Numbered from the stretch's first letter, positions 1,615-44,310 are shown. The stretch: 63,826 nt of DNA from Catajapyx aquilonaris (GCA_000934665.2 JYFJ02002056.1:1-63826); one strand, 5' to 3'. Notes: generated by a model from the letters alone, not told the origin. Numbers and translations are program-made.

Positions 1615-3554
1615 CTACACGACATTGAGCCCAAAAAGCCCTGCCATTGTCATCAGTGTCACTCCCACCACCACTTTCATAACACCAGGATCACTGAACG
1701 ACGACTGCACAAATTTACATACACCATCTCCTATCAATTCTGTCTTGATCCAAGAATCTCGGTGGGAAGTCTTGAGTCGCGTGAAGACCTTGAAGGCCTC
1801 TTCTCCTCTTATCACGCCCATTTCGCTCGGAAGTGCGGAATCCTTTGCTTCTCCTGTTGGAGCACAAATATCGTGAGAACTAACCGTAATAATTTTCCTC
1901 TAAAAAACTATACCTGTGTCCATAAATCGTATCGTGTCCGACGGAATTCCTTGCATCATTCTGACACGTGGTATCCGCTTATTGGTGAACGCGTAAGTCA
2001 CCGTCGGACGCAGCATCTTGTAATCGCCCCAGGTGGACTCTGCTGCTTTCTGCCTGCAAGTCCATATCAAAATTAGGCTTATTACTAACCAAGTTCGTGT
2101 CAATTAGACTCTTACAATGTCTTGCCGATCACAAACATTGCGTCGTATAAATGGAGCACTGTCGAGATCGGCAGTATAGGCCCTGAGAAATCTTGAGTCA
2201 AAAGCGGATCACCTATAGGGACATCAGCCACAACAGTCAGTGCAATTTGTCTGCTATTGTCGTCCACATCTCCGCCAATGACAATCCGCCCTTTGGTGGA
2301 CAGCAGAAGATTCTTCAGATGGCTACAATTTTAGAGAGGGTGTTTAATTACCAGCTTAATTGCAGATCAAATCATATCACCTACGTAAACTGCTCCACCG
2401 AATGTGTGTGGAGAAAACGCGGTTTGGCAGAGCACATTTCCTTCATGCTGGCAACAATTTCGTCCCGCAATATGGAAGTACACAACACATAGTCTGGAGC
2501 TGTAATGGGATACTTCAAATCCAGCAGCTTCTTCTGTAGGATGAACTTGGCGGCTGCCTGGACATCACAAGATTCGTCCATGAAAACAGGGCTGAAGAGG
2601 ACAAAGGACACGTTCGACTTCGTTCACATTGCGTCGTCTATTAGAGTAGTTCAAACTTACTTCTTTCCTCTGATATAACCAGTCACCGGCACACAGTTTT
2701 TGTAAGCCGCCTCGTAAACCTTCAGACTCAGCTTCTCCCTACCCATGTACACGACGTGACCGTAGCCGAATGTCAAAAGCTTGTCCAGAAGTGATTCGTC
2801 GCCATGGACGACGTGAAAACAATTCTGAAATCAAATAAATTAAGTCCACAAATAATTATGGGCGTACCAAGTGCTCACCTCATCAAGATACTTGGGAATT
2901 AATTCGGCAAACTTCGTTGAGGAAAGTGGAGTGACCTGCGAGGGTTTGACAATGACTGTGTTCCCTGCAGCAATGGCGGCAGGAAGAGGCAAGAGGGACA
3001 GGTACAAAGGATAACAATCGTCTGCTACGATCAACACCACTCCTACAGCTTCCCGCTTTTGGGTGACCATATTGTTGGAAAACATGCTTCCTGAGATGTT
3101 TTCAGTCCTGGTCCATTTGTCGATGTGACTGATGCTGTGATTAATTTCGGCGATCAGGTAGTCGATATCCTTCAAGTCTTCCTTCTGCGAACAGTTGCAA
3201 TAAAGCAAAAAGTGTCGTTTTGTGAGTTTCACCAGGTCTATTATTTTTAAGGGCAACGCAGGGTTACTTTCTAGTGCCCCATGCAATGTGTGAATTATTT
3301 GTACATGTTGGTGCGCACTTACCGCTTGATAGTCACGCTGAAGGCAATCCATCAGAACGTCTTTGTTTTCGCGGAGGAGTTGCAGCAATTTTGTCAGCTG
3401 AACGCGACGAAATGTAGGATCATGCAGATTCATAAAATTTACTTTACGACGAGCCGCTTCCACAGCCTTCAAATAATACAAATATCCCATTACTGTCTTA
3501 AAATGCCCTATTGCGCTGTAAACCATGTGTTCTTACCTGTACTGCCGAATCCAT
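1615..3554 (-). CDS. ALDH3/fatty aldehyde dehydrogenase-like protein, ~474 aa, C-terminal membrane anchor, catalytic motifs degenerate (paralogue A)
   Basis: Exons read with GT-AG signals: 3554-3537, 3466-3323, 3184-2879, 2824-2661, 2591-2385, 2322-2116, 2053-1914, 1853-1615 (1425 nt, open frame). ALDH3 landmarks: GVVLIV..YPL, AAIAAGNTVIVKPSQ, APDYVLC, GGDVD, GPILPI; hydrophobic tail VVVGVTLMTMAGLFGLNVV. Confidence 0.85.
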
Positions 3555-3705
3555 GGCTGAAATACGTAGTTTCTCTCCGAGTAATGTCAGTAATGTCGTT
3601 CTCATCCTGTACATCCCATTTCTTATATACACCACTTTAATAGTAACCTGTACATATTAACCGGTTTGTTATATATATGTTCACACGAAGCTTCTTCAGA
3701 TATAC

Positions 3706-4415
3706 CAGGGTGTTCCCCTTAAGCATAATAAAAGAAAAAACTGTACCTTACTAAGTACTGGTTGTAATGACAGATGGTGTGTGCCAGTGCCAAGGACAGA
3801 TCTGATAGTTTTTTTTATGTGGTTAATACATTTCCACATGAACTACATTGGTAGTGCTGCAAATGCCCAATCAGAAGCATATTGCCAAACCCCAACATGT
3901 ACCAACATAACCTAACCTTACCTTCCCTCATTGCGGATACACGCCTATCCTCAGCGGATATACAGCTAATATAGATGGCCGGTTGAGGGGAGACCACTTG
4001 GGGTTTGCCTATACGCCAATCGGAAGTCTGCCTCAACCCACATGTTGAGATGCATTTATGGTGTCATTTTTAATAAATATCAGCGCAAATTCTGTCGCCC
4101 AATTCTTCCATATTACACACTTGTAGAGTACACTGTTGCTTCAACAAACCCCAACAGGAAAAAAGTCAGGTGGAGTCAGGTCTGCTAATCTGGGGCTCCG
4201 AGAGAAGAAAAAGGGACCTACCCTTTTTCCCTTCATAATCCTACACCAATAGTTGGATTTTGGAGAAACCCATTCATATAAACACAGTGTATTAAATGTG
4301 TCATAACAAAATCCAATCTGCTCTTTGCATTGGCACATACCTTCTGTCATTACAACTAGTACCGTACTTTGTAAGTTATGAATTTTTCTTTTATTATACT
4401 TTTAAGGGGAACGCC
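3706..4415 (-). mobile_element. Internally deleted Tc1/mariner-superfamily element with ~95-bp imperfect TIRs
   Basis: Left CAGGGTGTTCCCCTTAAG..GTTGTAATGACAGATGG..CAGAT (3706-3800) is the inverted counterpart of 4317-4415; minus-strand peptide relic WCRIMKGKRVGPFFF / SPRLADLTPPDFF resembles the transposase motifs W..I..GPFFF and PRSPDLTPLDFF. Confidence 0.75.
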
Positions 4416-4622
4416 AAAATCTGCGATGAGAATAGCTCAGCCATGAAAAAATAAAGCAAAAATTATGCAGCTCAGGCAACATCTCAACCGTGCAAATTGA
4501 TATAATACTGTACACAGTGAGAAAATTGAGTAACAGACCTCTGTAAATCCCCTTCAGCAGATTCTGAGATAATATGTTATGTAAGTTGGGTATGCCTGTA
4601 CTTGGAAATGCAAATCTGTTAC

Positions 4623-4903
4623 CCCTGGAACCGTGCCGCGGAGTCCTTTTGGACTCCAAGGAAAAAAATGCATTAAAATTATCATTACAATGAAATTTTG
4701 CCATTTTCTACAGTATATAACAGGAAGTGCAGGTTTATTTTGAATTAGCGATCATTTTAGCCATTGTTCAAAGAATGATTGTATATAGTCAGTACATTGA
4801 AAAGTATTATGTAATAATTAATAAAAATAAAAATATGGTGGGGTCCGAAAAGACCCCACGGCACAGTTGCCGTAATACTCGTAGGCACGGCACGGTTCCA
4901 GGG
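4623..4903. mobile_element. piggyBac-like MITE
   Basis: TIR CCCTGGAACCGTGCCG ... CGGCACGGTTCCAGGG; flanked by TTAC (left, mutated) and TTAA (right); subterminal GGGTCCGAAAAGACCCC / GGAGTCCTTTTGGACTCC palindromes. Confidence 0.75.
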
Positions 4904-5651
4904 TTAATATAACTATCACATTTGGAAGCTTGACCTACAGCATTACGTGATCAGAATGCATATAACATGCCGGCCTTATAAATTGGTACCGGTACTTTTA
5001 AGCTAGTTACCCAATAGTTGAAATATTAAATAAAATCATTGCTAATTACAAAGGTTTGTCTGAAGTGATTTTTCATGAAGCTGTTGTATAATATTATACA
5101 TTTATTGTAGTGGAACTCAACTATTTGACTGTAGCCTACCTAGTTGTGGTACTTACACTGACAAGTCAGTACTTTTATACTTAGTCGGAAATTGTTAATA
5201 TTTACCTATAATAATTAACAATAGTTAATTTTACATGTAGTTACCTCGACAGTGACGAAGTCAAAATTTAAAAAAAGCAATAAGCAAAATATTTAGCATT
5301 TAATTTTAGCCAATGCCGATCTACATTGACGTCATTTTAATTTCAATTGAAGGAAATTTGCTACTTAATTTTCTCTCTTTACATGAAAGTCAACATTTCC
5401 CTTGTAATATCCGCATATTGTGCGAAATATTTAAGCGTGTTTTTATTTATTTAAACTTTAATTACTTAAAAATAAGCGGATTCGCATTCGCGAAGGCCAT
5501 GAGAAAATTCAGTGCACAACCTGCGACGTGTGGTCCAGGTCTTGATATATTTGATATGCATGTAACCACCTCTTTCGGTGAAGGCCACGAGAAAATTCAG
5601 GGCCATATAAGACTGTAGCTTCATCTAGTTTACTTGCAAGGTCGCGGGTGG

Positions 5652-5751
5652 CATATGAAGGGCTCGGGAGAAAAAACATACTGGCCACTGGAGAAACTAC
5701 TGTAGTATCTCCACTGGAGGTCAACATGTTTTCTTCCGAGCCCTTCATATG
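5652..5751. repeat. Inverted repeat, probable MITE remnant
   Basis: CATATGAAGGGCTCGGGAGAAAAAACAT pairs with ATGTTTTCTTCCGAGCCCTTCATATG; CACTGGAG repeated internally and at 5881. Confidence 0.55.
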
Positions 5752-6120
5752 ATTTCGTAACAGCAAAAATTCATTGGTTGTTTATAATGTTTCACTCAAG
5801 TGATCGAGTGATTTTCACTCTGATTACTTATAAATAATAAAAACACGCAATAAACCTATCAGAAATAGTACGGTATTTTTCACTGGAGGGCAGGTTGTTC
5901 ATACATGTGAATACTCCTCTTCATACCAACGTCACTTTCCCATTGCTTTCATGGGAAACTGCATGTTCATACCGATGTTTTGCATACATCATGTGTCACG
6001 TTATGAAGAATTATATCTTTCTAATATGCAAATGCGATGAGCCATATTGCACCACACGGTACCCACACATGAAAAAGTCAGTCTGAAATACAAGAATATT
6101 TCGATATAACGTTGCAGAAC

Positions 6121-8406
6121 ATGGAGCTGAATGTAGCCGAGGTAAGATAAGCAACAGAATGATAACTATTAATAAGGGCCGGTTTCACCGCTCGGTGAAA
6201 CCGGCCATAAGTAGCACTAATATAAAATTGCAGAAAATATCCAGGGCAAGACGTGCATACCAATCGTTCAAAATAACGACACCATTTCGACTCCAGCAAT
6301 TATATAATCTGCAAAGGATGTGCCAGGACAATTACGACTCAATTTTGTCATGTCTTCGAAAGGACCTGAACACTGTAAGAGTCACACGATGTACATTGTG
6401 CAAAATATCAAACCGGTTTTTATCGCCAGGTTCATCCCTTCCACGACATTGATTATGTCATCAGAGAGGTGGATTCATGCATCAAATGTGTCAAGACCTG
6501 GACCACGGTACAGGTTGTGTCCAACTGCATGCTGACCTCTGAGAGACGCACAGTGTGCCCTAAGAGCTTGGGAATAGTCCTTATTGTTGCGGACTATGAT
6601 TACCCACTATACTTAGTGCTGGTGTCACTATCTGCCGCTATTGCTGCCGGAAACTCTGTCATCATCAGGCCTTCAGAAGTGACACCTTCAGCTAACCATG
6701 CAGTTGCACAGCTCTTTTCCACGTACTTAGACCAGGTAAACTCATTTTTGCACTAATATAGAAGCATTGAAAGGATGATCTTTCCTACGCGACGAAGTGG
6801 CAGGAGTAGCTTCCGAATGGGCTTGGCAAAACCCCATCCCGGACTCCTGACACTTCGTCAAGTAGGAAAGATCAGCTGATATGAGTGTACTGTAGGACTG
6901 CTATCACATGTGCCTCGGTGATCATATGCTGGACCAACTTCTGATGCACCGATTCGACCACATATGTTACATGGGGCTGAAGGAAACTGCTCAGAAGGTC
7001 CACTCTTCTGTCAACCGACATCTGACATCAACCACATTCATGATCAGTGGCAAAATGTACGTTGTGCTCTGTACCAGGGAGCATATATATACTACATAAG
7101 AGGTGCAAACATTCGATTTCCGCGTCTCTCTGTTTGGGGGCGTTGGGGCTGGCGGCCATTTTGAAGTGTGGGGAACGCCAACGAGGTATAAATAGGGTAC
7201 AGGCAAAAATAGGGTCCGCCATCTTTGATTCCCCCGTGTTCTTGCCATGTAGTTGCCATGGCCGCCAAAACCATCAAAGATGGCGGACCATATTTTTGCC
7301 TGTACCCTGTTTATACCTCGTTGGCGTTCCCCACACTTCAAAATGGCCGCCAGCCTTGGCAACGGCCCCAAACAGAGAGACGCGAACATCAAAGGCGCCG
7401 ACAGAAGTTTGCGCCTCTTCTGTAGTATATGCTCCCTGTCTGTACTGTATATTTGCAATAATTCTGATCATCCCATGTTTCAGTCCGGTGTACCTGGACA
7501 GCACAGTCGATTTGGAAGACACGGCGAGGAGCATTTTTGAGGCTAAATTTTGCACTGATTATTCATACATGGCGCCGGATTTTGTGCTGTGCAACAATGA
7601 GGTGAGAAACAGCCTTGTTGATGTGGCGCCCAAAATTTTGGCGCAAGTTTGTGGAGCCGAGTCACGTCGGATGTACAGCCAAGTGAAGTTCAGGTATGTT
7701 GAGCCAACAAATATTAGGACAAATTATCACTGAATGTTCCGCAGACGTTTCAAGGAGCTTCTGCAATCAACCAAAGGAAAAGTTGTGGTAGGTGGAGATG
7801 TTGATGACTCAAACAAGAGTGTGTCTCCGGCTATTGTGATCGGCGTTGACCCAAATGACGTTCTGATAGTTGGAGACGAAAAATGCGGGCCGATACTTCC
7901 CATTGTTACAGCAATCACATCTTACGACGCAATTCATTTCATTCTGAAAAAGTAAGCAATTTTGCTCGACCTTTTACTCCAATCATGACCAACTACTTAT
8001 GATTTTTGTAGCACACCTAACCCTTTGGTGGCGTATGTCTTCAGCAATCAGCGATTGGTTCAGGTACACATGATGCAAGGAATATGTTGCGGAACAATGC
8101 TCATCAATACCACTGTACCTAGTTTTCGTAAGTGTCATCTGAAGTCACACTAACAATACTCGCTTCATTTAAAAAACAATTTTTTTTACAGAAGGAAAGC
8201 CAGTGCCATTAGCAGGCGTGGGAACAAGCGGATATGGAGCAATCAATGGAAAATTCGCCTTCGAAAATTTCACACATCAAAAATCTACTGTTCGATACCC
8301 AACAATGCAGACAACAATCAAACGTCACCATGAGTTACTCCTGCCCATGAGCATAATTATATTCACAATGCTAATAGGTGTAATTATTAGTTACCTTTTT
8401 ATGTAG
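6121..8406 (+). CDS. ALDH3/fatty aldehyde dehydrogenase-like protein, ~458 aa, C-terminal membrane anchor, catalytic motifs degenerate (paralogue B)
   Basis: Exons 6121-6141, 6234-6374, 6430-6735, 6896-7056, 7484-7693, 7745-7951, 8012-8127, 8192-8406 (1377 nt, open frame); same intron positions and phases as paralogue A. Motifs AAIAAGNSVIIRPSE, RFDHI, APDFVLC, GPILPI, PLAGVGTSGYG, FENFTHQKS; hydrophobic tail; AATAAA near 8447 and 8485. Confidence 0.88.
6177..6206. repeat. Perfect 14-bp inverted repeat in intron 1, flanked by ATAAG direct repeats
   Basis: GGCCGGTTTCACCG-CT-CGGTGAAACCGGCC with ATAAG at 6172-6176 and 6207-6211. Confidence 0.8.
6776..6874. repeat. Intronic hairpin with 32-bp arms (intron 3 of paralogue B)
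   Basis: 6776-6807 TGATCTTTCCTACGCGACGAAGTGGCAGGAGT vs reverse complement of 6843-6874; 3 mismatches. Confidence 0.8.
7075..7438. mobile_element. Fold-back MITE (~364 bp, arms ~155 bp) with 7-bp TSD in intron 4 of paralogue B
   Basis: Termini CAGGGAGCATATA...TATATGCTCCCTG; long near-identical arms; TCTGTAC at 7068-7074 and 7439-7445; removing it restores a ~56-nt intron. Confidence 0.9.
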
Positions 8407-8793: not shown

Positions 8794-11700
8794 ATGGAAA
8801 AGAAGTCCGTAAAGAAGAGATCAGCATGGCTGCCCCCAGTGAGCAAGTCCTTCCACGAGAGGCTCGTGTGCAGGAATCCAGCCCCTGCAGAGTAAGTACA
8901 CTAGTTCATGACTCGCAAATAGATTACTTATGACTCATTGTGTACAGACCGAAGCGACTCAAGACAGAAGATCCGCCAATGAAACTCGTGACTCAGCTGG
9001 CCATGAGGAAGGCCATGCACAATCGGAAAGTGTACGATCCTCTGGTAAGTTCATCTCTTCATGATTTATAGTGGCAATCGCTTAACTAATGTCGAATGCG
9101 GCTTCAGCATGGATTCAAAGGATGTCAGGAGCACAGATTGGGCCAGTTTCCACAAGTGGACCAAGGAGAGATGTTTCCTGTTATAGACACTGGGGGTTAG
9201 TAGCTGATACATTTGACCATACGTTTGGATTGATGACCTTTTGTTGTACAGGAAAGAAAAGAGGTGTGAGCAGAGGTCCAATGTACGTTGAGGATACGAT
9301 CCATAAGGATGGGGTCATCGAAGGATTAGAACTGTACAAACTCCTGGAGTCTCTGGAATCGAATCCAAAGGAAAACTTCATTTACCTGCAACATGCTCTA
9401 GCCCCATGGGACGTCAAGCATCATCCCTACACCTTAAAGTGAGTATAATAGTGTGATACAATCATTACCATCTCTCCATATGCTCAACCCACAGGATAAT
9501 GCCGTACCATACCCTGGACAAGGATCACTACTTGACCTTCAGCAAAAATGGAGTGAGTCACTTCTGGAACCAGGAGGCCGATTTTACACCACTGAGGGAG
9601 TGGATGGACGGCTGCAAACTTTTCTACAAACTACAGAAGGTAAGATCGCTTCATTGAGAGTGGTATATATTGTCACGTATTGTTGCCTGGACAGATCAAC
9701 ACCATAGGACAGTTCCGAAAGTGGAAGGCTGTCAGGCTATGGCGACAAAGTGTGAGGAGAAGTAAGTTCCTGAAGAGCCGAAAGTACATTGCTGAAAACC
9801 TATTCATACTCACGGCTCCTCTGCAGAAGGCTCTTCTCACTATGCAAGAAATATTTCTCAAGGTTTGTTCTGGCAGCGAATGTCTGACCACACTTTGCTA
9901 AGCTTCTTTTTTATTCAAGATGGCGAAGACTCCGCTGATTGACGTGACCGATCCGAACATGATCACACTGGACGAGTTTGTCGATCGGCAGAAGGAGTAT
10001 GTCGAAAAGATGAGGGAGTATCTGGAGGAGGTGAGGAACCTTCTGGTGGACATCACGGGCGAGGCACTGCTCACAGCCTTTGACGACAAAGGATATGTTC
10101 TGGATGACTCAGCCGCTTACGAGAAACTCATAGCCAGATGTGAGCACACTCCGCGAAATGCTGTTGTCACATTTAAGTCCATTCTGTTCCTCACCTTTTC
10201 AGATCAAAGCATGGCCATCGCCTGGGAGCTGAACCCCGATCTGCCCTTTCACATGACCTACGCTGCGCAGGCGGCCAAGAGGTCATACTGCACTCGAATG
10301 GCGAGGTCAGGCTGACTTCACAACTTCATCTGCAACACTTGACACTTCATCTACAACACTTCTCGTGGTTTTTCTCCTACAGGTTCATCATGCTGGTTGA
10401 CTACAAGTACAACTGCGCGATGCACCGGATGATCCGCAACTCCATCAGAGTCACCCTCTTCCACATGCACGACAAGCTGCACACCGCACCTGAGGAGTAC
10501 CTCGACTGCGAGGAGGTAGCGGCTGTTGACGAGATGGTCGAACCCATCAGGAACTTATACATCGCCTATGTAAGAACATTTTTAGCCTGGTATTTTCTGT
10601 TATTTTATACGACTGTGTGTATGTGCAGGAAGGTGAATTTGAGTCAACCGAGGCCAACTCCTTGTGCGGGTTGTGGGCCACCACCATAGTCGTCCAGGAG
10701 GGACCCATCTCCATCGAGCCTTCCCTGAGCGACTTCGAGGACAAGCTCAACGACGTGTTCGACTCATGGGTCAACCTGATCAACTCCTCCTCGCACATAT
10801 GCACCGACTCTGAATTTGATCTATACGCAAAGTGAGTAAATGTCCCCAAGCGGAGTTTGAGTCATCTCTGACTCCGTCTCTGGTGGGACATCCATCAGAC
10901 TAACCATTCAGGGGAGGACTCATAAATTATGTTTGTTTTGTGAGTTTCCCCAGGGGTTGTGAGTCTGACGGACGTCCCACCCGAGACGAAGCCTGAGATG
11001 ACCCAACTCCGTACTAGCTGAAAGGGGCCATCTCCGTCTCCGTCTCGAGTGGGATATCCGTCAGACTAACCACCCCGGGGTCATCATGTCATTTCAGCCC
11101 CATAATAAACGGTTCGGCCGAAGACGGAGAGCCCTTCGAGGCTCCAGAGATGGGGGAGGTGATGGACGAGGACGAAGAGATGAAGGACTGGGCCGACGCC
11201 GCGTTTCACGTCATGCAGACAGCGTACGCCCTGGCTTGCGTGTACGTGGACAAGTTCGAGCCCCTTCGGATCTTCTGGGACCACAACGAGTCCGTGGAGA
11301 AGGCCTTGCTCCCGGAAATCGCAGGTGAGTCTGCTTTGCAAGCGATGTTGACCTCGTATGGTGCACTGAACGATCCTTGCAGATGTACCGGTGTACCGCA
11401 AGTACCTACTGATGTTCAACAAGCAGTCCCACACCATATCGCAGATCAGCGACAAGTTCGCGCTGGGCATCATAATCCTGAGCAACACCAAGTTCAAGAG
11501 CGACATCATCCCTTCGCCCGAGAGCTGCATCGAGATCCTCCACGAAGTCTGTCCCGCGTGAGTGTATACGGAGTACGGGCAGTCGCTCTAGGCTTGAAAC
11601 TAATCCGGACATTTCCAGGTTGACCCGAATGACCCTGGACAAGCTGATCGAGGAGGCCAAGGAAGCTCAGAACTGGCTGGCGATGGAGCCGGTCACCAGC

Positions 11701-14700
11701 GAGGAGTACGTCGACTTCCTTGGATTCCTCGAGGAGATACCCGAGAAGGTACTGCTTCCACGTGGTTGGTGGATTTATTATTATACTCGCTGCGCTCAGC
11801 AGTGGGGATGTTGACCTTGCTGACCTTTGCCCCATTTGCCCGCCTTCGGCGCTTGTCATTCCCACCCGAGCTTTATACAGTATACTGTATACTGGATTGT
11901 TGGGCATTGTTTTGACAGTTTTCTGTTTTCAAAGGCTGAGAACATGGAAGGAGTGGCGGAGTACCTGAGAGACCTGTACGACGTCATGGAGGAGTTCGAT
12001 GTGCCCGTGCCTCCGTCGGACCACGCTCTTTACGCGGTCAGTTTTTGTTCTCTCGGTGATTGGTCGGGTTTCCTAGGGGTTCCAGTGTAACATGTTTGGC
12101 ACACCCTCACAGACGTTGGGTCCCATGCTGTCCGAGGTACAACGCGGTATCGACGGAGCCCTGACCGACCGGGACACCACGCTTCAGCTCTTCGTCGTGC
12201 AGCTCCAGAAGGACGTGGCCATCCTGCAATCGGACGTGGACAACGTGAAGAAAGAGACGATGGTAAAGTCCTCTCCTTTGGTCCACGAACGTGTGGATTT
12301 TACTCTCTCCTTCTTCTGCAGAACGTGAGTCTTCTGGAACCAAAAACCGGAGTGGACGTCGCCTTAGGTCTGCTGAACGACCTGGACGTGAAGCTTCAGG
12401 ACTGCCAGGAGAGGACCACGAGATACCAGGCTTACCAGAGGAGATTCAAGGTAAACTGCATGCAATTGGTGTAGGAAACTGTACACCTGCTGTAATTCAT
12501 GTGTACTGATTCATGCACCGACATGGAGGTGGTGGTTCGTAATGAACAAATACCGTCTGCAGGTCAGTATTGTAGTCGGTACATGAATCGGTACATCGTG
12601 ATGGTACCATTTTCAAGCTAGTACATGTGAAGGACGAACTGTCTGCAAGTCAGTACTGTAGATAGTACCTTACGTTCTAGTCGGTACATCGTGATGTATC
12701 GTTAACAAGTCAGTACTGCACACGTTATTTCACGTTCAAGTCGGTACATCGTGATGACACCATTTTTCTGAAGGATGGACTGTCTACGAGTCAGTACTGT
12801 AAACTGTATTTGCTGGTCACAAAATGCGTCACCTTCAGAATAATCGGTACATGAATGATATTACAGTGTATACGACACATACCTTACTGTCAATCCCCAG
12901 ATAATGAAGATGAAGTTCGAGGAGCTGGACGACATCAGCAGCGCCTTGAAGCTCCGTCTCCTCCTGTGGGACTCCCTGGTCAACTTCGACGAGCTGCTGA
13001 CCAACGTGTACGAGGCGGACTTCAGCCAGCTGGACACGGAGTCGCTGGGGACCAGCATCAACAAGTACAACAAGGTGGTGCAGCAGCTGGAGAAGGGGCT
13101 GCCGTACAACGACGTCCTGCCCATACTCAAGGGAAAGGTGGAAGACATGAAGATAAAGGTCGGTCTGATCTCCTTTAATAGCTCTCTGAGCCTGAGGAAT
13201 AACCTATGTGCCTCCCCCAACAGCTGCCTACGATAGTGAACCTGCGCAACCCATCGATGAAGGCCCGCCACTGGGGCACTGTGGACGTTATAATAGGCAC
13301 ACCCCTCCAGACGGAGGAGCCCATGACCCTGACCTACCTGACCCAGGCGGAGGTCTTCACCCACGCGGATGAGCTGCAGGAGGTGTCCGCACAGGCCAGC
13401 GCGGAGTACAGCCTGGAGATGCTGCTCAAGAAGGTGTCCGACGCCTGGAAGGACGTGGAGTTCACCACCGTCTGCCACAAGGACCAGAAGGACGTGTTCA
13501 TCCTCGGGGGGACCGAGGAGATACAGATGCTCCTGGACGAGAGCGTCATCAACATCAACACCATCCTCAGCTCAAGGCACGTCGGGCCCATCAAGTCCAA
13601 AGTGGACGAGTGGGCCACGCAGCTGGACCTATTCAGCAAGACACTGGTCCGTCTCTCGCAATGCGGTTGTCATTCGAAAGGGATCGTATAATATTGTCCC
13701 CGGTTCCATTGCAGGAGGAGTGGATGAACTGCCAGAGGAACTGGCTGTACCTGGAGTCCATCTTCATCGCTCCGGACATCCAGAGGCAGCTTCCGGCTGA
13801 GGCCAAGATGTTCAACACAGTGGACAAGAGCTGGAAGGACATTATGAGGAGGACGCAGAAGGCAAGTTTTGTTATGGCGGGTTCAGACCACCGCCGATCG
13901 TACATTTCACGTACTCTTTCCAGCTCCCGCATGCTTTCCACACCTGCACCCAGTCGGGCTTGCTCGAGACGTTCCAGACCGGCAACGGTATGCTGGACCA
14001 GATAATGAAGTGCCTGGAGGAGTACCTGGAGTCCAAGCGGGTCATATTCCCCCGCTTCTACTTCCTCTCCAACGACGAGCTCCTGGAGATCCTGGCCCAG
14101 ACCCGCAACCCACTGGCCGTCCAGCCCCACCTCCGGAAGTGCTTCGACGCCATCCTCAGGCTGGACTTCTCCACGAAAGCGGCAGGCGGAGGAGTACCGG
14201 GGACCAAAGTGACCAACGACATCCTGGCCATGGTGTCGCCTGAAGGGGAGAGAGTCACGCTGACCAAGGTGCGGCAGGAATGAGAATGAGTTGAAAGCGT
14301 GTAACCATTTTTGTGGATATTCCGCAGGGATTGAAGGCACGAGGGAACGTGGAGGACTGGCTCGGAAGGGTCGAGGAGGCCATGTTCGTGTCGTTGAAGC
14401 AGCAGATGAAGGCGTCCATAACGGACTTCAAGCAGCGGAAGCGGGAGGTTTGGATGCTGCGGCATCCGGCGCAGATCGTGCTTGCCGTCTCGCAGATGAT
14501 GTGGTGCAGGGAGGTCCAGGTGGTTCTGGACGGACCGTACGAGGAAGGGGAGAACCTTAGGAACTTTGAGGTCAAATGTTTCGATGTGAGTCGCATCGTT
14601 GCCTTCGTCGCTTTCGTTGTTTCTAACTTTCCGATTTGTACCGGCAGGATCTGAACAAGCTGGCCGCATTGGTGCGAGGGGAGCTTCCGAATCTGCATCG

Positions 14701-17700
14701 TGCCACCCTCTGCGCCGTCATCACAGTGGACGTCCACGCCCGGGACATAATCACCGGGATGGTCTCGATGGGGATAAGCTCCAGCAGCCAGTTCGAGTGG
14801 CTCAAGCAGCTGCGGTACTACTGGGACGAGGAGGTGGACACATGCATTGCGAAGATGGCCAACTCGGAGTACAAGTACGGTTACGAATACTTAGGCGCGT
14901 CGCCTCGGCTGGTCATAACCCCGCTGACTGACCGCTGCTACCTCTGCCTGATGGGTGCACTTCAGCTGGATCTCGGTGAGAATGTTTCTGCCAACTGTTG
15001 TTTTTAAAGGATGTAACGACGGAATTATTTCCTGCAGGCGGAGCTCCGGCGGGTCCGGCCGGAACAGGAAAGACGGAGACCACGAAGGATCTGGCGAAGT
15101 CCCTGGCCTTCCAGTGCATCGTGTTCAACTGTTCGGACACTCTGGACTACAAGGTGCGTGTGCCCGCGGGGAATTTCGAGAGCCATTTATATACGGGAGC
15201 TTTTATCCCGCAGATGATGGGCCGGTTCTTCTCCGGCCTGGCACAGTCCGGCGCATGGTGCTGCTTCGACGAGTTCAACCGAATCGACATCGAGGTGTTG
15301 TCCGTTATTGCTCAGCAGCTGATCACCATAAGGAACGCCAAGCTTCAGAAGCTGGTGAAGTAAGTGCCGACGCGACGTCGTTCGCAGAGTTTCCGACACT
15401 ACATTTTTCCACGAACTTTTCAGCTTCGTGTTTGAAGGACGCGAGATCAAGCTGAACCGCACTTGCGCCGCTTACATCACGATGAACCCTGGGTACGCCG
15501 GGAGGACGGAGCTTCCTGACAATCTGAAAGCGCTGTTCAGGCCCATTTCCATGATGGTACCTGATTACGGTGAGTCGTCAGCCGAACCTCTAAGCCTTTT
15601 CTGGTATTTAAAACACTTCCGTTTTTAATCCACAGCCTTGATTGCGGAAGTTATCCTGTACTCGGAAGGGTTCGAGTCGTCCAAGCCGCTTGCGAAGAAG
15701 ATGGTTCAAATGTACAAGCTCTGCAGCGAGCAGCTCTCTCAGCAAGACCACTACGATTTCGGCATGAGGTTCGGCTTCTTGTTTTAAAAAAATTAACTGA
15801 AGGTTCACGGGTTGATACTTCATCTTTCCGGTTTCAGAGCTGTGAAGTCCGTCCTGGTTATGGCGGGATCGCTGAAGCGAGAGAATCCGGACAAGAGCGA
15901 AGACGTGGTTCTGATCCGAGCCCTTCGAGACAGCAACCTGCCCAAGTTTTTAGCGCAAGACGCCAACCTTTTCCAAGGCATCCTTCGGGATCTGTTCCCC
16001 GGGGTGACAATCCCAGAGCAGGACTACGGACGGCTGCAGGAAGCAATAGAGCGGGTTATACGTGAGAGGAGCTTTCAAGTAAGGTTTTCCGCTTGAATGC
16101 GGAAGAATTGCTGTTGTAAACAATATCTCTTTGTTTTGTAGGTGCATCAGAGCCAAGTGAAGAAGGTGATTCAGCTGTACGAGACTATGATCGTGCGTCA
16201 TGGAGTCATGCTGGTTGGTCCCACTGGCGGCGGGAAGACGACGGTGTACCGGGCGTTGAAGGACGCTCTGACTCTGCTGCATGCGGAAGGAGTTCAGGAC
16301 CAGTACTACAAGCCTGTCGAAGTGTACGTGGTCAACCCGAAGGCAGTGTCGATGGGCGAGCTGTACGGAGAGGTTAATCCGCTGACCCTGGAGTGGCGGG
16401 ATGGCCTCCTAGGATACATGGTGCGCCTGGCGGTCGGCCCAGAGAAGACGTTCCACCAGTGGGTGATATGCGATGGGCCGGTGGACGCCGTTTGGATCGA
16501 GAACATGAACACAGTGCTGGACGACAATAAGATGCTGTGTTTGGCCAACTCGGAGAGGATCAAGCTGACCAACTGGGTGCACATGGTCTTCGAGGTGCAG
16601 GACCTGGCGCAGGCCTCGCCAGCCACTGTCAGCCGCTGCGGGATGGTGTACATAGACCCGAGCGAACTGGGCTGGGAGCCGTACGTGACCACCTTCCTGC
16701 TGTCCCTGCCAGAGGACATCATAACGGTGGAGATGAGGGACTACCTGATGGTCCTGTTCCACAAGTACCTGCAGCCTGGACTGACGTTCGTGGGGAAGCG
16801 ATGCGACCAGACCATGGCGCAGGTCAACTTCGCAAAGATCAGCATGCTCTGCAGCCTTATCAAGGCGCTTCTGGCCGGAAATGATCCGGTGGACTTCAAC
16901 GTGGAGAAGTCCCGATTGAACCAGATCCTCTGCCAGACCTTCGCCTTCTGCTACGCCTGGTCCATCGGAGGCAACCTGATGGACACCAGCTTCGCGAAGC
17001 TAGAGGAGTTCATCAGGTCTCAGTTCGAGGAGGACAAAGACGCTAAGTATGCAAAGAGTTTGCAGATCGGTCTTCTTCGCTCTCTTAAAATTATTATCGC
17101 GGTGCACATAGAAACTGATCATATCCTTTACGTTTACACTAAACAGCCTTAATAGCAAACTTTGAATTTGATTTTCAGGTTAACGACTACCGGAGACCTG
17201 TGGAGCTTTTACAACAACTACGACCTGAAGAAATCCGAGATGTGGGAGAAGCTCATCCCGATTTTCAAGTATGATCGGGAGCTGCCCTACTTCGACGTGC
17301 TGGTGCCCACCAAGGACACGGTTCGTTTCGGACGCCTCATGGAGCTTCTGTTGTCCGTCAACAGGTCCGTCCTCTTCACCGGAACCACAGGTAAATACCC
17401 ACTGATTCCAGTTAGGGTACCAACATGTTTGACCATTTTTGTTAAAAAAAATCCAGGCGTGGGAAAGTCAGCCATAGCGCGCGAAGTTCTCATGCGGATC
17501 AGCGACAAGGCGAACTACATCCCGGTGTTCATCAACTTCTCGGCGCAGACCAACAGCAAGCGGACGCAGGAAATGCTCGAGTCCAAGATGGAGAAGAGGC
17601 GGAAGAACCACCTGACGCCACCGCCTGGAAAGCAGGTCATCATCTTCATAGACGACCTGAACATGCCGAAGCTGGACACTTACGGGTCACAGCCGCCCAT

Positions 17701-20700
17701 CGAACTGCTCAGGTTGGACCATCCCGCAGATTTTGAGTCGCATAATAACCGGTGAAAATGTCGTTGCTCCTTTTTTTCCAGGCAACTTCAGGACTTTGGC
17801 GGATTCTACGACCGAGAGTCCATATTCTGGAAGGACATAACCGGGCTGACCTTGTGCGCCGCTTGTGCCCCTCCAGGCGGTGGCCGCAACCCAGTGACGG
17901 CCAGGCTTCTCCGGCACTTCTGCATGCTGTCCATTCCGTCTCCGAGCACAGGCGCCTTGAAGCACATCTTCAAGGCTATCCTCACTGGATTCCTGGATCC
18001 GTTTGAGGAGGAGGTGAAGACTTCGGTGGAAAGTGTCGTCAACTCCGCAATCGAGATGTACCAGTTCATGGCCATGGGGTTCCTGCCGACTCCGGCCAAG
18101 TCGCACTACGTGTTCAACCTGCGGGATCTGTCCAAGTGCATCCAGGGCGTGCTGCAGGCGGACAGCGAGATGCTGGTCACCAAGGGGCAGCTGCAGAAGT
18201 GCGTGTCGTGGCCAATTTACCATCAGATTTTTTGTTCAAAACGCGTTTCCTTATTCACAGGCTCTTTTCCCACGAGTGCCAGCGTGTCTTCGGGGATCGT
18301 CTGGTGAACCACGAGGATTCGAACTTGTTCATGAAGACCATGTGCGAGGTCGTCGGCAAGCACTTCGCCTCGAGGATGGACTATGAGGCGCTGATTGTCC
18401 ACCCGATCCTCTTCGGAGACTTCATGAAGATGGGGGTCGACCGGGAGGCCCGCATCTACGATGAGATCGAGGACTTGGACCGACTGAAGTCTGTGTTGCA
18501 GGACTACCTGGACGAGTACAACATGAGCACGTCCAAGGAGACGCATCTGGTGTTCTTCATGGACGCGATGGTCCACCTGACTCGAGTGGCCCGCATCCTG
18601 AGGGCCGAACGAGGGAACGCTTTGCTCGTTGGAGTCGGAGGAACTGGGAAGCAGAGCCTTACGAAGCTGGCGTCGTACATATCGGGATTTAAGTACGTGC
18701 GGAAATGCTCGGCAGTGGACAGTCCTGCTGTAAATGTTGCGTTTTCAGGTGCTTCCAGATCGAGCTGTGCCGAGGGTACGACTACAACTCTTTCCACGAC
18801 GATCTGCGCCGGCTGTTCGACATAGCCGGTGTGAAGAACCAGCCGACTTCCTTCCTGTTCGTGGACACCCAGATCGTGCAGGAGGAGTTCCTGGAGGACG
18901 TCAACAACATACTGAACTCGGGGGAGGTGCCCAACCTGTACGAGCCCGAAGACTACGAAAAGGTGATCATCGGGGTGCGTTCGGCGGCGAAGCAAATCGG
19001 CATACCGGAAGGCGACAGGGACGGAATCTACGACTTCTTCGTCCGTCGGGTCAGGACCAACCTTCACATCGTGCTGTGCATGAGCCCAGTCGGAGATGCT
19101 TTCCGGAACCGCTGCCGGATGTTCCCGTCTCTGGTCAACTGCTGTACGATCGACTGGTTCACCGAGTGGCCCACTGAAGCCCTTTTGTCGGTGGCCGAGA
19201 CGATGCTTGAAGGGGTCGACCTGGGGAGTGTTAACGCGGAGATTCTCGCACGTGCTTGCGTCGTTGTCCATGAGGTAGGTCCGCCGCTATTTGAAAGTGG
19301 ACAAACATACATACCAACAAATTTTACCTGTTATTCTATACGCGCGATTCTTTTCCCCCATATAGAGCGTGATTGAAATGTCGGACCGCTTCTACAACGA
19401 GCTCCGCCGCCACTTCTACACCACTCCGAGCACCTACCTGGAGCTGATCCAGCTCTACAAGGCCATGATGGACGAGTCTCGAGTGAAGATAATGAGCCAG
19501 AAGTCCAAGGTGAAGAACGGGCTGATGAAGCTGCTGGAGACGAACGTCCTGGTGGCCAAGATGAAGATAGAGCTGACCGCCCTGGAGCCGGAGCTGAAGG
19601 AGCGGTCGGAGTACGTGAACGTGCTGATGGTGAAGCTGGGGAAGGACCAGGAGGTGGCGGACGCGGAGAGGCAGAAGGTGAGGGAGGACGAGGCCGTGGC
19701 CAAGCTCAAGGCGATGGAGACGCAGGCCATTGCGGACGACGCCCAGAGAGATTTGGACGAAGCATTGCCGGCCCTGGACGCTGCGGTGAAGGCGCTGAAC
19801 TCGCTGGATAAGCAGGACATTGCGGAGATACGAGTGTTCAACCAGCCGCCGCCAATGGTGCAGACCGTGATGGAAGCCGTTTGCATGGTGTTGGGCCAAA
19901 AGTAAGTGCGTGGCAAACGCAATAAGCGGACGACTTACTAATGCGTGATTTCTGTACAGGACCGATTGGGCGTCGGCTCGTCAGCTGCTGGGCGACCCGA
20001 ACTTCATGAGGAGGCTGTACGACTACGACAAGGACAACATACCCGCAGCGATGTTGAAGAAGATCAAGAAATACACGGACAATCCGAAGTTCGTGCCAGA
20101 CGAGGTGCAGAAGGTGTCGAAGGCCTGCAAGTCCATGTGCATGTGGGTGACTGCGATGGAGCTGTACGCGAAGGCCTTCCAGACAGTGGAGCCCAAACGG
20201 CTCAAGTGAGTACATGGTGGTGGGGGGTTTGCGTTTCTCCCATGACCCCAAGAGCTATGCCTCCCGTAGCTTCGTCTACTGGTAGGGCCTCCCAAGCCGG
20301 ACAGGTCTTTGAGATAGGAGACAGACTAAGAGAGATGCCAGTCTTTCCTCTCTTCTTTTTTCTCTTCGTTTTTCACTCCATCTGTCCCACCTTTGCTTCT
20401 TCTTATAGCCAGATAGCCACAGTTGCTTTGGCTTCTTCTCAATAAACGTAAACTAATTAATTTGAGAGTTAATGCGTCTTTTATTTCAGATTGGCGGGGG
20501 CGGAGGAAGGCCTGATGAAGGTGATGGCCATGCTGAAAGAGAAGCAGGAACGACTGGCCAAGATCGAAGCGGAGATAGCTGCCTTGGAGAAGATGTTCGA
20601 TGACTCGGTTAAGGAGAGGCAGGACCTTGAGAACAACATGAAGCGCACGTCCGACCGCCTCGCCCGTGCTGCCAAGCTGACGACCGCACTTGCCGACGAG

Positions 20701-23700
20701 CAGGTCCGTTGGGCGGCAAGCATCGAGCTGTACGACGCCCAGATTGGGGAGATACCCGGAAACGCGTTTGTGGCGGCCGCATGCGTCGCGTACTACGGAG
20801 CCTTCTCCAGCAACTACAGGCAGGAGCTGGTCAAAACCTGGCTGGAAAGCTGCAAGGACATCGGCATACCCGTGTCAGGGGACCTGACATTGGCCGGGTT
20901 TCTGGCGGATCCGTTCGAGATCAGGCAGTGGAATTCGTTCGGGCTGCCTCGAGACGCTGTGTCGACGGACAATGCGATCCTGGTCAAACGAGGGAGACGC
21001 TGGCCGCTGATGATCGACCCGCAGGACCAGGCGAATCGGTGGATACGGCAGATGGAAGCCGAGAGCGGACTGAAGGTTATTAAGATGACGGATCAGGGTT
21101 TCCTCCGCACCGTTGAGAACTCCATCCGGCTGGGCTTCCCGGTGCTGATGGAGGAAGTGGGCGAGACACTGGAGCCGTCGCTTGAGCCCGTGCTGCTGAG
21201 GCAGACGTACGTTAACGGCGGACGGCTCATGATAAAGCTAGGCGACAACGAGGTGGACTACGACGCCAACTTCAGATTCTACATGACCACAAAGATGGCT
21301 AATCCTCACTACCTGCCAGAGGTTTGCATCAAGGTGACAATCATCAACTTCACGGTTACGCGCACCGGGTTGGAGGACCAGCTGCTGAGCGACGTTGTTC
21401 GGCTGGAGCGGCCGGATCTCGAGAAGCTGCGGAACAAGCTGATCGTCCAGATCAACACGGATAAGAACCAGCTGACGGCCATTGAAGACAAGATTCTTCG
21501 CCTGCTGTTCGCATCCGAGGGGAACATTCTGGACGACGAGGAGCTGATTGAGACGCTGAACGACAGCAAGGTTACGTCGGCGGCTATCACGAAGCGACTA
21601 GCCGAAGCGGAGACGACCGAACGGGACATCACGGATGCCAGGGAGGGCTACCGTGACGTGGCCGCCCGTGGGTCGGTCCTTTACTTCGTGGTGGCCGTCC
21701 TCTCGGAGATCGATCCCATGTACCAGTACTCCCTGAAGTACTTCAACCAGCTGTTCTGCCAGTGCATCCAGACCAGCAAGAAGTCACCGAACCTGAGGGA
21801 GAGGCTGTCCATCTTGCTGAGCCAGACGACCCTCGCCACGTACACCAACGTGGCTCGAGGACTGTTTGAGAAGGACAAGCTGGCGTTCAGCTTCATGCTG
21901 TGCATCGAGATAATGAAGCAGGACAGGGCCGTGTTGGATAACGAGTGGAACTTGTTCTTGCGGGGGGTTCCGCTCGAGGTTTGTCGTTGATTCGAACTGT
22001 CATAGCAAACATTGTTGACTTGTCCTAGATGAAACTCGGATGAACCTGGCCATTAGTCGGCATGTTGTTAATTATTGACATTTTTGCTTTTCTGACAACA
22101 GGGTGAGGAGCAGAAGTCTCCAGTTCCGTGGGTCAACGACGCCGTTTTTAACGTCGTAGTGGCTCTGGAGCAGACGAACCATCACTTCGCCGGCCTGACA
22201 GAAGCAGTGGCGAAGAAGGAGGTGCTGGTGACCATCGGAGACGTGTCGATCGACCTTTGCTTCGACTCCGAGGCCAAAGCGAATGGCAAGAAGCCGGTGT
22301 ACCAGAAGCAGAAGACGACGACTTCACCGTCGAAAAAAGCGGTGGAGCAAAAGCCAGATCCGGATGCGAAGGACGTGAACGACAGACTCACCTCGTTTCA
22401 TAAGCTGATGCTGGTTAAGATTATGAAGGAAGAGTGGGTAAGGTTATGTTTTGCAATAGTTTTAACGCTTTTATCCTGTGAGAGCTATGCCGGCAGTAGC
22501 TTCGTCTACTCAAGTCGGACAGGTCTTTGGGATATATAGGTCTTTCCTCTCATCTTTTTTTTTTCCTCTTCGTTTCTCTCTCCATCTGTCCCACCTTTGC
22601 GTCTTCTTATAGCCACATAGCCCTAGCTGCTTTGGCTTCTTCCTAATAAACCTAAACGTTCTCGGCAGCTGATCTTCTCCATAACGGAGTTTGTGAAGAC
22701 CAACCTGGGCGAGGCGTTCGTCGTGAGCCCTTCGATCGACCTCCACACAGTCTGCAAGGAGCTGAACAAGAGCACTCCTCTCATATTCGTACTGAGCGCC
22801 GGAAGCGATCCGATGGGGGCCTTCCAGCGATACGCGGAGGATGTCAACTTCGCCCACCGCCTGGGCTCCATCTCGCTCGGACAGGGTCAGGGTCCGGTGG
22901 CCGAGCGCATGATCCTTGAGGCCTACCAGCGCGGGGACTGGATTTTCCTGCAGAACTGCCACCTTGCCTCTTCCTGGATGCTGCGTCTGGAGCAGATGGT
23001 GAAGCAGCTGGAGGAAGGCGAGGGGGAGAAGAACACCAAGAGCTTCCGGCTGTTCCTGTCGTCAATGCCATCGTCTCGGTTTCCGGTGAGCGTGCTGCAG
23101 AACTCGGTGAAGGTGACAAACGAGCCGCCAAGAGGGCTGCGGGCCAACATACGTCGTGCCCTGGTGGACGTTAAGAAGGACTTCTACGAGGATCCGACAC
23201 GCGGTCCGGATTGGACCCGGGTCCTGTTCGGGATATGCTTCTTCCATGCCGTCATTCTCGAGCGGAAGAAGTTCGGTCCCCTAGGTTGGAACATAAAGTA
23301 TGAGTTCAGCGACAGCGATAGGGAGTGCGCCTTCTTGAATCTCGGTATGTTCTGCGGTGGAGGTGAAGAGGAGAACGATATGGGTGAGATGGTGGCAAAG
23401 CCTCTCGGGGACATACCGTGGGATGCCCTCGAGTACATAACGGGATCCATCACCTACGGAGGGAGGATCACGGACAACTGGGACCAGCGGACGTTGACTA
23501 CCATACTGCGGATATTCTTCTCCCCGCCGACTCTCGCAACCGGATACACCTACTCGCCATCGGGCTTGTACTACGCTCCTCATGACGCCATAACGGTGCA
23601 GCAGGTCTTGGACTATGTGGCCGCCCTTCCGATAATCGACGACCCCGAGATATTCGGTATGCACGATAACGCCAACATAGCGTTCCAGATACAGGAGAAC

Positions 23701-24834: not shown

Positions 24835-25091
24835 TTCCTCAGGACTTATTAATGTCCCAACGAAAGAGCATAATACACGTTTTATTTGTCTAGTCGATTG
24901 ATTAATTACGCTGTGTTTGTCGCCATTGTTTGGCCAACTGGAATAGTTTTGAGGATTTTTCATTTTCTCGATCAGGTTATAGGTCAATTTGTTGTTGGAA
25001 TCTGAATCCAAACGTATCCACGACTACCGACCAGTTTTGTTTAAACAATCAGCCTAATTTTAAGGAACGTTTTGATCCCTGCTAGTTTGTG

Positions 25092-43843: not shown

Positions 43844-44310
43844 AAATGATTAGTTTTGAAATATTCTCCCAAAGCTCTTTTCCAGACTTTTGCGCAGGTA
43901 AAACATTTTAAATTCGCCATCATCATCAAAACATCAAAACATCATCATCAAAACCAATGTATGCCAAGAGATGTCAAGAGACACAAACTCTGCATCACAG
44001 GTCAAAAGTCGGTAACTATGGTCCGTAAAGGTCAAAGGGTATGGTCTTATAAATCTTTTTCTTGCCTACTTGCTGTCAGACTGACATGGGTTGATGCAGC
44101 TGACAGCAAGCGCAAGTGCAGGTAGGTGTAGTCTGGGCGAACATTACCCGTGGTTACACACCTCAACTCATTGTGGTTCAAGCAGAGTCATAATATGACA
44201 ATAATGACAATAACAAATGTGGCGGTTTCTATGTAAAGTGTCTTTGTTTGTTGGCAACACAAATGCTACTATCCTGACGAGTGGTGCCATCATGTCACAT
44301 AGAGCTTCTC

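Follow-up and report, generated by a model that had tools for sequence, protein, structure and literature searches.

The window, by which is meant the whole 63.8-kb stretch of DNA that was analysed, contains two divergently oriented genes, A and B, that resemble class 3 aldehyde dehydrogenases (ALDH3). Gene A lies on the minus strand at 1615..3554 and has 8 coding exons (3537-3554, 3323-3466, 2879-3184, 2661-2824, 2385-2591, 2116-2322, 1914-2053 and 1615-1853), amounting to 1425 nt and 474 amino acids. Gene B lies on the plus strand at 6121..8406 and also has 8 coding exons (6121-6141, 6234-6374, 6430-6735, 6896-7056, 7484-7693, 7745-7951, 8012-8127 and 8192-8406), amounting to 1377 nt and 458 amino acids. 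Both models were made by eye and from homology. Each spliced frame is open and the intron layouts match, as had been claimed in the preliminary description: all 14 introns run GT..AG, 7 of 7 in each gene, and the series of intron phases, 0,0,0,2,2,2,1, is the same in A and B.

The start codons (ATGs) of the divergent pair are separated by a spacer of 2566 nt (3555..6120). Within it are a MITE-like element, with inverted arms at 3721-3806 and 4311-4401, and, at approximately 4542-5009, a repeat of very high copy number, which was identified from the depth table. Elsewhere in the window, the best named matches of an intronless NAD kinase ORF are to arthropods, at 50-59% identity, and a dynein exon has its best matches in coral, snail, annelid and sponges, at 66-68% identity.

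When aligned to its relatives, gene A is found to have an insertion of 13 residues (8 codons net) in exon 7, which is absent from B, and to be missing the GVG.SG stretch.

Gene A appears to be transcribed, and to be spliced as modelled at the junction of exons 6 and 7. A contig of 237 nt from run X5 lies on gene A at 1913..2193 (minus strand) and skips positions 2054-2115, which are intron 6 with its GT..AG ends; it shows no differing letters. The joint between the two exons (2053/2116) is present in this contig and absent from the DNA run X1, and the exon 7 insertion sits inside the spliced sequence. The RNA evidence consists of this one contig of low depth (2.3), from one run of unrecorded kind, and concerns gene A only.

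Membership of the ALDH3 family

Exon 3 of each gene gives a match to the Pfam Aldedh family (PF00171) that exceeds the family cut-off, with E values of 3.6e-11 and 7.1e-14. The scores, 42.7 bits in B and 51.6 bits in A against a cut-off of 23, are those of members of the ALDH superfamily. Matches to Aldedh at E<=1 were found for 6 of the 14 exon translations tested, and the four exons in which the Glu and Cys motifs lie gave none. The full spliced proteins reach 333.5 bits (B) and 271 bits (A) with an HMM of 39 canonical ALDH3-like relatives, and both are colinear with the model from position 10 or so to 447 of its 497 positions, a span of about 435 positions.

Among solved structures, exon 3 of B is closest to FALDH (4qgk, E 2.9e-14) and the ALDH3A1 entries. 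Its top eight solved matches are all FALDH, ALDH3A1 or class-3 enzymes, with other families appearing only at E>=1e-9, and none of the 60 solved matches listed for this exon is an entry named ALDH16. The additional domain of the ALDH16 type is absent from A and B: beyond the ALDH domain each has only 30-45 residues, which end as a hydrophobic tail. In a tree of unnamed proteins that were gathered with the exon 3 query, A and B fall within the ALDH3-like matches. Their neighbour, P0116, is unnamed in the library and is presumably a vertebrate FALDH. On these comparisons, A and B are placed in the ALDH3 (class 3) family, closest to ALDH3A2/FALDH and ALDH3A1. The ALDH3 ancestry proposed for the pair in the preliminary description is thus supported by the solved matches of exon 3, by tree position and by the full-length HMM scores.

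Exon 3 was the sole query for all of the database searches for relatives. A profile of exon 3 from A and B, searched against 1.84 billion representatives, gave 4851 matches at E<=0.001, and none of these was a closer relative of the pair than canonical ALDH3, at 28-36% identity. The best profile match, P0002, is a protein of 1020 aa with two intact ALDH3 units, which are 27-30% identical to A and B. In a word-indexed protein search with exon 3 of B against longer proteins, the only one of the 211 candidates to pass was an ALDH from Streptomyces with 38% identity. Among metagenome contigs there were 325 pattern matches, 0 of which were confirmed by tblastn. With this query, therefore, no orthologues of A or B were found in the protein, profile or metagenome searches.

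Loss of catalytic and cofactor motifs

Motif columns were assigned with high posterior probability by the HMM of the 39 canonical relatives and by MAFFT, and are numbered here after P0116. All of the motifs of A are on the minus strand and those of B on the plus strand. For the canonical (A/P)WNYP, A has ADDCYP (3008..3025) and B has ADYDYP (6589..6606). The oxyanion Asn of this motif (column Asn112), which is present in 150 of the 150 best database relatives, is Cys111 in A (codon 3014-3016) and Asp111 in B (codon 6598-6600). The general-base Glu of TLELGGK (column Glu207) has been replaced by Tyr206 in A, which reads TGYIRGK (2663..2683), and by Met205 in B, which reads TFMISGK (7034..7054). 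For NAGQTCVAPD there is DLKYPITAPD in A (2492..2521) and TDYSYMAPD in B (7554..7580), such that the nucleophilic Cys (column Cys241) is Ile240 in A and Tyr238 in B and the Gln is Tyr in both. Neither protein therefore has the oxyanion Asn, the general base or the nucleophile in its expected column.

The F(F/Y)TGS sequence that starts the cofactor-binding glycine motif is VYMGR in A (2738..2752) and CYMGL in B (6965..6979). The Thr of this sequence (column Thr184) is Met in both copies, its Ser is Arg in A and Leu in B, and the Gly190 column has Ser in A and Ala in B. The EEIFGP motif is QDFSGP in A (2178..2195), where the spliced contig of run X5 covers it up to 2193, and DEKCGP in B (7875..7892). 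Its second Glu (column Glu331) is Asp324 in A and unchanged in B, and its Phe (column Phe333) is Ser326 in A and Cys327 in B. By alignment, the cofactor-binding motifs, F-T-G-S...G and the E-x-F of EEIFGP, are lost from both proteins.

All of the motif substitutions listed in the preliminary description are thus present in the HMM and MAFFT alignments, mostly with different residues in each copy. The Cys of FCTDY in B had been named there as one that, if it modelled into the active site of an active protein, would speak against loss of catalysis. Both alignments place this residue upstream of the column of the catalytic Cys, at a distance of six columns, and it was rejected as a substitute nucleophile. 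From the residues in these columns we infer that A and B cannot perform NAD(P)-dependent thiohemiacetal chemistry, and cofactor binding in the normal mode has probably been lost as well.

Across 40 relatives, 73 columns show conservation of 85% or more. Of these, 39 are kept by both copies and 19 by neither, and the doubly lost columns cluster in the catalytic and cofactor motifs. In the alignment A is clearly the more degraded of the two, having kept fewer of the conserved columns (43 of 73, against 50 of 73 in B), lacking GVG.SG and carrying the exon 7 insertion. The C-terminal strand region is retained in B and partly in A.

The two proteins end in hydrophobic segments that are candidate tail anchors. 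In A the segment comprises residues 452-474 (1618..1686, minus strand), with a Kyte-Doolittle 19-residue maximum of 2.05 at 456-474, and in B residues 435-458 (8332..8403, plus strand), with a maximum of 2.56 at 436-454. The hydropathy maxima at the extreme C-terminus of both proteins agree with the hydrophobic anchor noted for them in the preliminary description and fit a single C-terminal anchor of the FALDH type.

Age of the pair and selection

A and B are sisters in the tree with an SH-aLRT value of 100. Their stem has a length of 0.70 and their tips are 1.0 and 0.79, with a median end branch in the tree of 0.71. The long common stem, together with the shared Thr-to-Met and Gln-to-Tyr changes, suggests that the active site was probably altered already in the common ancestor of A and B, the positions so freed then diverging in each copy.

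Over 439 aligned codons of A and B, pS is 0.787 and pN is 0.440, and 47 of 73 fourfold sites differ. The synonymous sites are saturated between the two genes and the non-synonymous sites are not. Between 3.75 and 4.2% of single substitutions create a stop, and the probability that a frame would remain open after just 0.1 neutral substitutions per site is approximately 0.003-0.005. Given the saturated synonymous sites, the two open frames, the long stem with derived changes common to both active sites, and the spliced contig of A, the genes are not decaying duplicates. Neutral decay, with dN/dS near 1 and no transcripts, was the alternative named in the preliminary description; the paralogues have a pN below their pS and the contig of A is spliced. 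In both A and B the catalytic residues are gone and the coding sequence has been under purifying selection, the combination by which a pseudoenzyme is defined.

Interpretation

It seems fairly probable that A and B are an ancient, tail-anchored pair of pseudoenzymes derived from FALDH, held by selection and acting by binding. They would have arisen as inverted duplicates of a tail-anchored, FALDH (ALDH3A2)-like aldehyde dehydrogenase. The ALDH scaffold and the C-terminal membrane anchor are kept in both copies, and both are missing the Asn-Glu-Cys set as well as the cofactor motifs, glycine-rich and Phe alike. Purifying selection has kept the two frames open ever since they were duplicated, so long ago that synonymous sites are now saturated. 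The proteins would sit as dimers, as FALDH does, on the cytosolic side of some internal membrane, and would work by binding rather than by catalysis. What they bind may be a hydrophobic ligand in the old substrate funnel or a protein partner, which could be each other or an active FALDH. Since the catalytic residues have been lost and yet the genes have long been intact, a non-enzymatic job is probable.

The interpretation in the preliminary description is therefore sustained in part. An old, retained, non-catalytic pair derived from ALDH3 is supported by motif loss in the alignment, by the sister relationship in the tree, by pS against pN, by the survival of the frames and by the spliced contig of A. 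The heterodimer that was also suggested belongs to a more speculative and rather doubtful extension, in which A and B would be the first ALDH3-derived pseudoenzymes, would pair with each other or cap the active FALDH on an internal membrane, and would there sense fatty aldehydes or lipids or regulate how aldehydes are cleared.

It is unlikely that A and B are instead neo-functionalised enzymes, in which the ALDH fold was kept and the pocket rebuilt for some other chemistry or cofactor. Such enzymes would also show the long-term purifying selection seen in pS/pN and in open-frame survival. The derived Tyr at Gln239 and Met at Thr184, being common to both copies, suggest a selected new pocket over pure drift. 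Tyr has also replaced the Cys of B and the Glu of A, and retained positions include K/R134, P135 and S136 along with the motifs APD and GP.LP. However, at the three catalytic columns A and B have unlike residues (Cys/Asp, Tyr/Met and Ile/Tyr), as relaxed constraint predicts and unlike a shared new mechanism. Furthermore, the exons with the Glu and Cys motifs, in which Pfam Aldedh has no match, are the least ALDH-like, and no precedent for such a change was found in searches of the literature.

The genes could have been functional, perhaps as pseudoenzymes, for most of their history, with one or both copies now unconstrained, but recent death of this kind is quite unlikely. Both frames and all 14 pairs of splice sites are intact, and A appears to be transcribed and spliced. 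A variant contig from the DNA run X1, covering the 54-nt intron 3 of A and its flanking exons, carries at least 7 of its 8 mismatches within the intron, leaving no more than 1 for 163 exonic nt, a concentration with a Fisher p of 2.8e-4. The deletion variant at 2010 in A is of 3 nt and is in frame. On the other side, the variants of A among those listed for run X1 include 16 that are coding, 6 synonymous and 10 non-synonymous, and their pN/pS of approximately 0.4-0.5 is not significantly below the neutral value of 1 (p 0.13, or 0.08 with two-hit codons counted once). More conserved positions have been lost in A than in B, and the exons of B are without cover in run X5, which amounts to no evidence on the expression of B.

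That the models are artefacts, with the true transcripts using other exons with canonical motifs or the loci belonging to other genes, is highly improbable: only the exon 6/7 junction of A is confirmed by a spliced contig and the putative first exons are tiny (18 and 21 nt), but both models are complete, colinear with the HMM and alike in intron phase, the A-specific insertion is within the spliced contig, and a tblastn search of the window with five canonical relatives as queries revealed no exon with canonical motifs that could be used instead, giving beyond the modelled exons just two chance-level matches in the dynein gene (E 0.33 and 0.94). A hidden canonical exon was rejected on the basis of this search.

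If A and B are indeed a FALDH-derived pair that acts by binding, then selection can favour the FALDH fold for a use at membranes that is not enzymatic, one that has been kept in two copies over a long divergence. The pair would then be a natural experiment, sampled twice, on the parts of the fold that such a use requires, with the 39 columns kept in both copies to be set against the 19 lost in both.

Comparison with known systems

FALDH is described as a dimer in which the C-terminal transmembrane helix adjoins the gatekeeper helix (PMC8160307). A and B resemble FALDH/ALDH3A2 (4qgk) and ALDH3A1 in domain colinearity, in length (~460-510 aa) and in the C-terminal hydrophobic anchor. They differ in that identity is just 28-36% and that neither the catalytic Asn, Glu and Cys nor the motifs for cofactor binding remain. 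A differs further through the lack of the GVG.SG stretch and through the 13-residue insertion in exon 7.

No description of a dead or non-catalytic ALDH3 or FALDH-like protein was found in searches of the literature. Vertebrate ALDH16A1 is described as an ALDH fold without the whole catalytic triad, kept in genomes and proposed to be a protein binder, and it is the only pseudoenzyme of the ALDH superfamily named in the review sections concerned (PMC10650815, PMC12041015, PMC8160307). Its extra C-terminal domain is described as forming an atypical dimer (PMC12041015). Like A and B, ALDH16A1 retains the ALDH fold and is missing the catalytic triad. It belongs to another ALDH family, however, and has an extra domain and no tail anchor, whereas A and B are of the ALDH3 type and are without the extra domain.

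The omega-crystallins are enzymatically inactive. In the lenses of scallop and squid, omega-crystallin/ALDH1A9 is described as an ALDH fold recruited to a structural, non-metabolic role (PMC5737492). It has the ALDH fold, like A and B, and its recruitment, in invertebrates, was to a role outside metabolism. In contrast to the pair, it is a soluble protein of the ALDH1 type with high expression in the lens; A and B are of the ALDH3 type with a candidate membrane anchor, and their expression is represented by a single low-depth contig, of A.

Dead members of the ALDH superfamily are already known, and what appears to be new here is a non-catalytic, membrane-anchored ALDH3. Were A and B to act as a sensor or regulator, they would be the membrane-bound counterpart of the soluble ALDH16A1.

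Gene structures

Two ALDH3-like genes were rebuilt from the sequence of the window, which is eukaryotic and has a G+C content of ~40% around this locus. Gene B, on the plus strand, has exons at 6121-6141, 6234-6374, 6430-6735, 6896-7056, 7484-7693, 7745-7951, 8012-8127 and 8192-8406, giving a 1377-nt open frame that encodes 458 aa. Gene A, on the minus strand, has exons at 3537-3554, 3323-3466, 2879-3184, 2661-2824, 2385-2591, 2116-2322, 1914-2053 and 1615-1853, and a 1425-nt frame encoding 474 aa. Both have 8 exons with GT..AG at every intron, and the intron phases (0,0,0,2,2,2,1) are common to the two and fall at the same alignment positions. A hydrophobic stretch forms the extreme C-terminus of each protein. 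The preliminary description, which had claimed 8-exon open frames with identical intron positions and a C-terminal hydrophobic anchor, is thus borne out in its account of the gene structures.

The start codons diverge, with 2566 nt between them, and in 439 aligned codons the two proteins agree at 156 residues (~35% identity). Gene A carries 13 residues after the exon 6/7 junction (2015-2053, minus strand, at the 5' end of exon 7; net 8 codons over the exon) that set it apart from B and from all canonical relatives. When A, B and five canonical relatives were used as tblastn queries, the window yielded no additional ALDH-like coding piece.

Family and catalytic motifs

Pfam Aldedh scores above its cut-off on exon 3 of A and of B. 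At E<=1 it matches 6 of the 14 exon translations, with no match at that level on the four exons that hold the Glu and Cys motifs. Among solved structures, exon 3 of B matches human FALDH/ALDH3A2 (4qgk, E 2.9e-14) and entries for ALDH3A1 best, with other ALDH families far behind. An HMM made from 39 full-length relatives that the library search had returned gives 333.5 bits for B and 271 bits for A, and each is colinear with it from profile position ~10 to 447 of 497.

Motif columns were taken from a MAFFT alignment with 40 relatives and from the HMM alignment, which has high posterior probability at the motifs; the two are concordant at every motif. Residues are numbered after P0116, an ALDH3-like library relative, presumably the same numbering as in human FALDH. 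In A and B, respectively, Asn112 is replaced by Cys and Asp, Glu207 by Tyr and Met, and Cys241 by Ile and Tyr. Thr184 of FTGS is Met in both. Gly190 has become Ser (A) or Ala (B) and Phe333 Ser (A) or Cys (B), while Glu331 is Asp in A and is retained in B. None of the 150 best library relatives lacks the Asn. With a threshold of at least 85% conservation in the 40 relatives, 73 columns qualify, of which 39 are kept by both copies, 15 by one and 19 by neither. Nearly all of the 19 lie in the WNYP, FTGS..G, ELGG, N.GQTC and EIF motifs; the copies retain the glycines and prolines of the scaffold, together with the KPS, APD and GP.LP blocks. The motif replacements reported earlier are thus correct in every checkable detail.

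Judged on their sequences, the predicted proteins have the ALDH3 fold and a tail anchor and lack the catalytic set. They would be incapable of thiohemiacetal chemistry, and the NAD(P) site is probably impaired or lost. The best guess, held with moderate confidence, is a non-catalytic role in binding or scaffolding at a membrane, where A and B could act as homo- or heterodimers or could partner the active FALDH. It is unlikely that the pocket has instead been rebuilt for a new chemistry.

Duplication history

A maximum-likelihood tree that combines the pair with 39 relatives places A and B as sisters (SH-aLRT 100), beside P0116 and two further ALDH3-like library relatives, P0010 and P0024. The stem leading to both has a length of 0.70 substitutions per site and the tips are 1.0 and 0.79. 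Long-branch attraction is a concern for the placement of two such fast-evolving rows; however, the genes also lie next to each other, agree in every intron phase and have derived motif states in common, all of which point to sisterhood independently of the tree. These states (Thr184 to Met, Gln239 to Tyr and Leu208 to Ile) lie within the cofactor and catalytic motifs, whereas in the catalytic columns themselves the residues of A and B are unlike. Most simply read, this pattern would mean that the gene was already compromised in catalysis when it duplicated, with the freed positions diverging afterwards.

Transcription of gene A and maintenance by selection

Sequencing run X5, of a kind not on record, bears the same species label. 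One of its contigs (237 nt) has no mismatch to gene A and skips 2054-2115, exactly the modelled intron 6, whose minus-strand ends are GT..AG. This joint was not found in the DNA run X1. The contig includes the whole of exon 7, so the A-specific insertion is present in mature RNA, and it ends one base beyond exon 7, as expected of a splice onto exon 8.

Synonymous differences between A and B are saturated (pS 0.787, with 47 of 73 fourfold sites differing), in contrast to the non-synonymous differences (pN 0.440, dN ~0.66). Stop codons would be created by 3.75-4.2% of all single substitutions in the two frames, and the neutral probability of a frame remaining open is ~0.003-0.005 after 0.1 substitutions per site and ~1e-8 after 0.33. 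Yet neither frame is interrupted, and none of the 14 splice-site pairs has been lost. An X1 variant contig that runs through intron 3 of gene A into the exons on either side has 8 mismatches, of which at least 7 are intronic (54 nt) and at most 1 is exonic (163 nt; Fisher p 2.8e-4); the two insertions listed for it are intronic as well. An X1 indel variant at 2010 in exon 7 of gene A (depth 27/170) loses exactly 3 nt, in frame. Among the variants listed, the gene A coding changes in X1 comprise 6 synonymous and 10 non-synonymous (16), a pN/pS of ~0.4-0.5 that is not significantly below neutrality.

The preliminary description held that the pair is old and retained. The contrast of pS and pN, the odds of an open frame, the mismatches concentrated in the intron and the spliced gene A contig indicate that both genes have been retained by selection; the non-significant pN/pS of the listed gene A variants speaks against it. 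A is more degraded than B, as might be seen had constraint been lost recently, especially in A; against this evidence such a loss is distinctly unlikely. That the gene models are an artefact is very improbable indeed, and the segment skipped in X5 is precisely a modelled intron.

Surroundings and copy number

Gene B is followed directly, on its own strand, by a DNAH6-type axonemal dynein heavy chain gene (~10177-25023, possibly from ~8.8 kb). Its exons are long, up to 505 aa, with a G+C content of 53-57% compared with ~40% around it. The best matches of a dynein exon are from coral, snail, annelid and sponges (66-68%), the top database identity being 68%. An NAD kinase ORF (44278-45564, plus strand) runs uninterrupted for 428 codons and is complete, with both Pfam domains. 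Its best matches are arthropod NAD kinases (50-59% identity), and it may be an intronless retrocopy.

MITE-like inverted repeats are found at 3721-4401 in the A-B spacer and at 6776-6874 and 7112-7393 in introns 3 and 4 of B. Summed X1 contig depths are ~18,000-100,000, against a baseline of 32-38, in two stretches: ~4542-5009 (spacer) and ~6882-7583 (around B intron 4). This suggests very high copy numbers, the depth being up to ~1000 to a few thousand times that of single-copy sequence. Gene B is covered in X1 by single mismatch-free contigs (depth 31-36). Gene A has several variant contigs (depth 40-78) besides a reference-like contig at ~38; these could reflect allelic variation within a pooled sample or additional A-like copies at other genomic sites.

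Comparison with known systems

With exon 3 as the query, nothing more similar than canonical ALDH3 (28-36% identity) came out of a word-indexed search, an exhaustive profile search of 1.84 billion representatives or a search of metagenome contigs. This lack of orthologues is weak evidence, as exon 3 was the only query. By sequence, the nearest family is ALDH3A2/ALDH3A1, whose active enzymes differ from A and B in having all three catalytic residues that the pair fails to conserve. Omega-crystallin/ALDH1A9 has no known enzymatic activity. The passages of PMC5737492 that concern it present another ALDH taken into a structural role. FALDH is described, in the relevant part of PMC8160307, as a dimer with a transmembrane helix adjoining the gatekeeper helix, and the C-terminal hydrophobic stretch of A and B corresponds to this arrangement. 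ALDH16A1 is the sole ALDH pseudoenzyme named in the pertinent sections of three reviews (PMC10650815, PMC12041015, PMC8160307). A full-text literature search found no description of a dead ALDH3-type member. It is ALDH16A1 that comes nearest to A and B in kind, although it belongs to another ALDH family and has another architecture.
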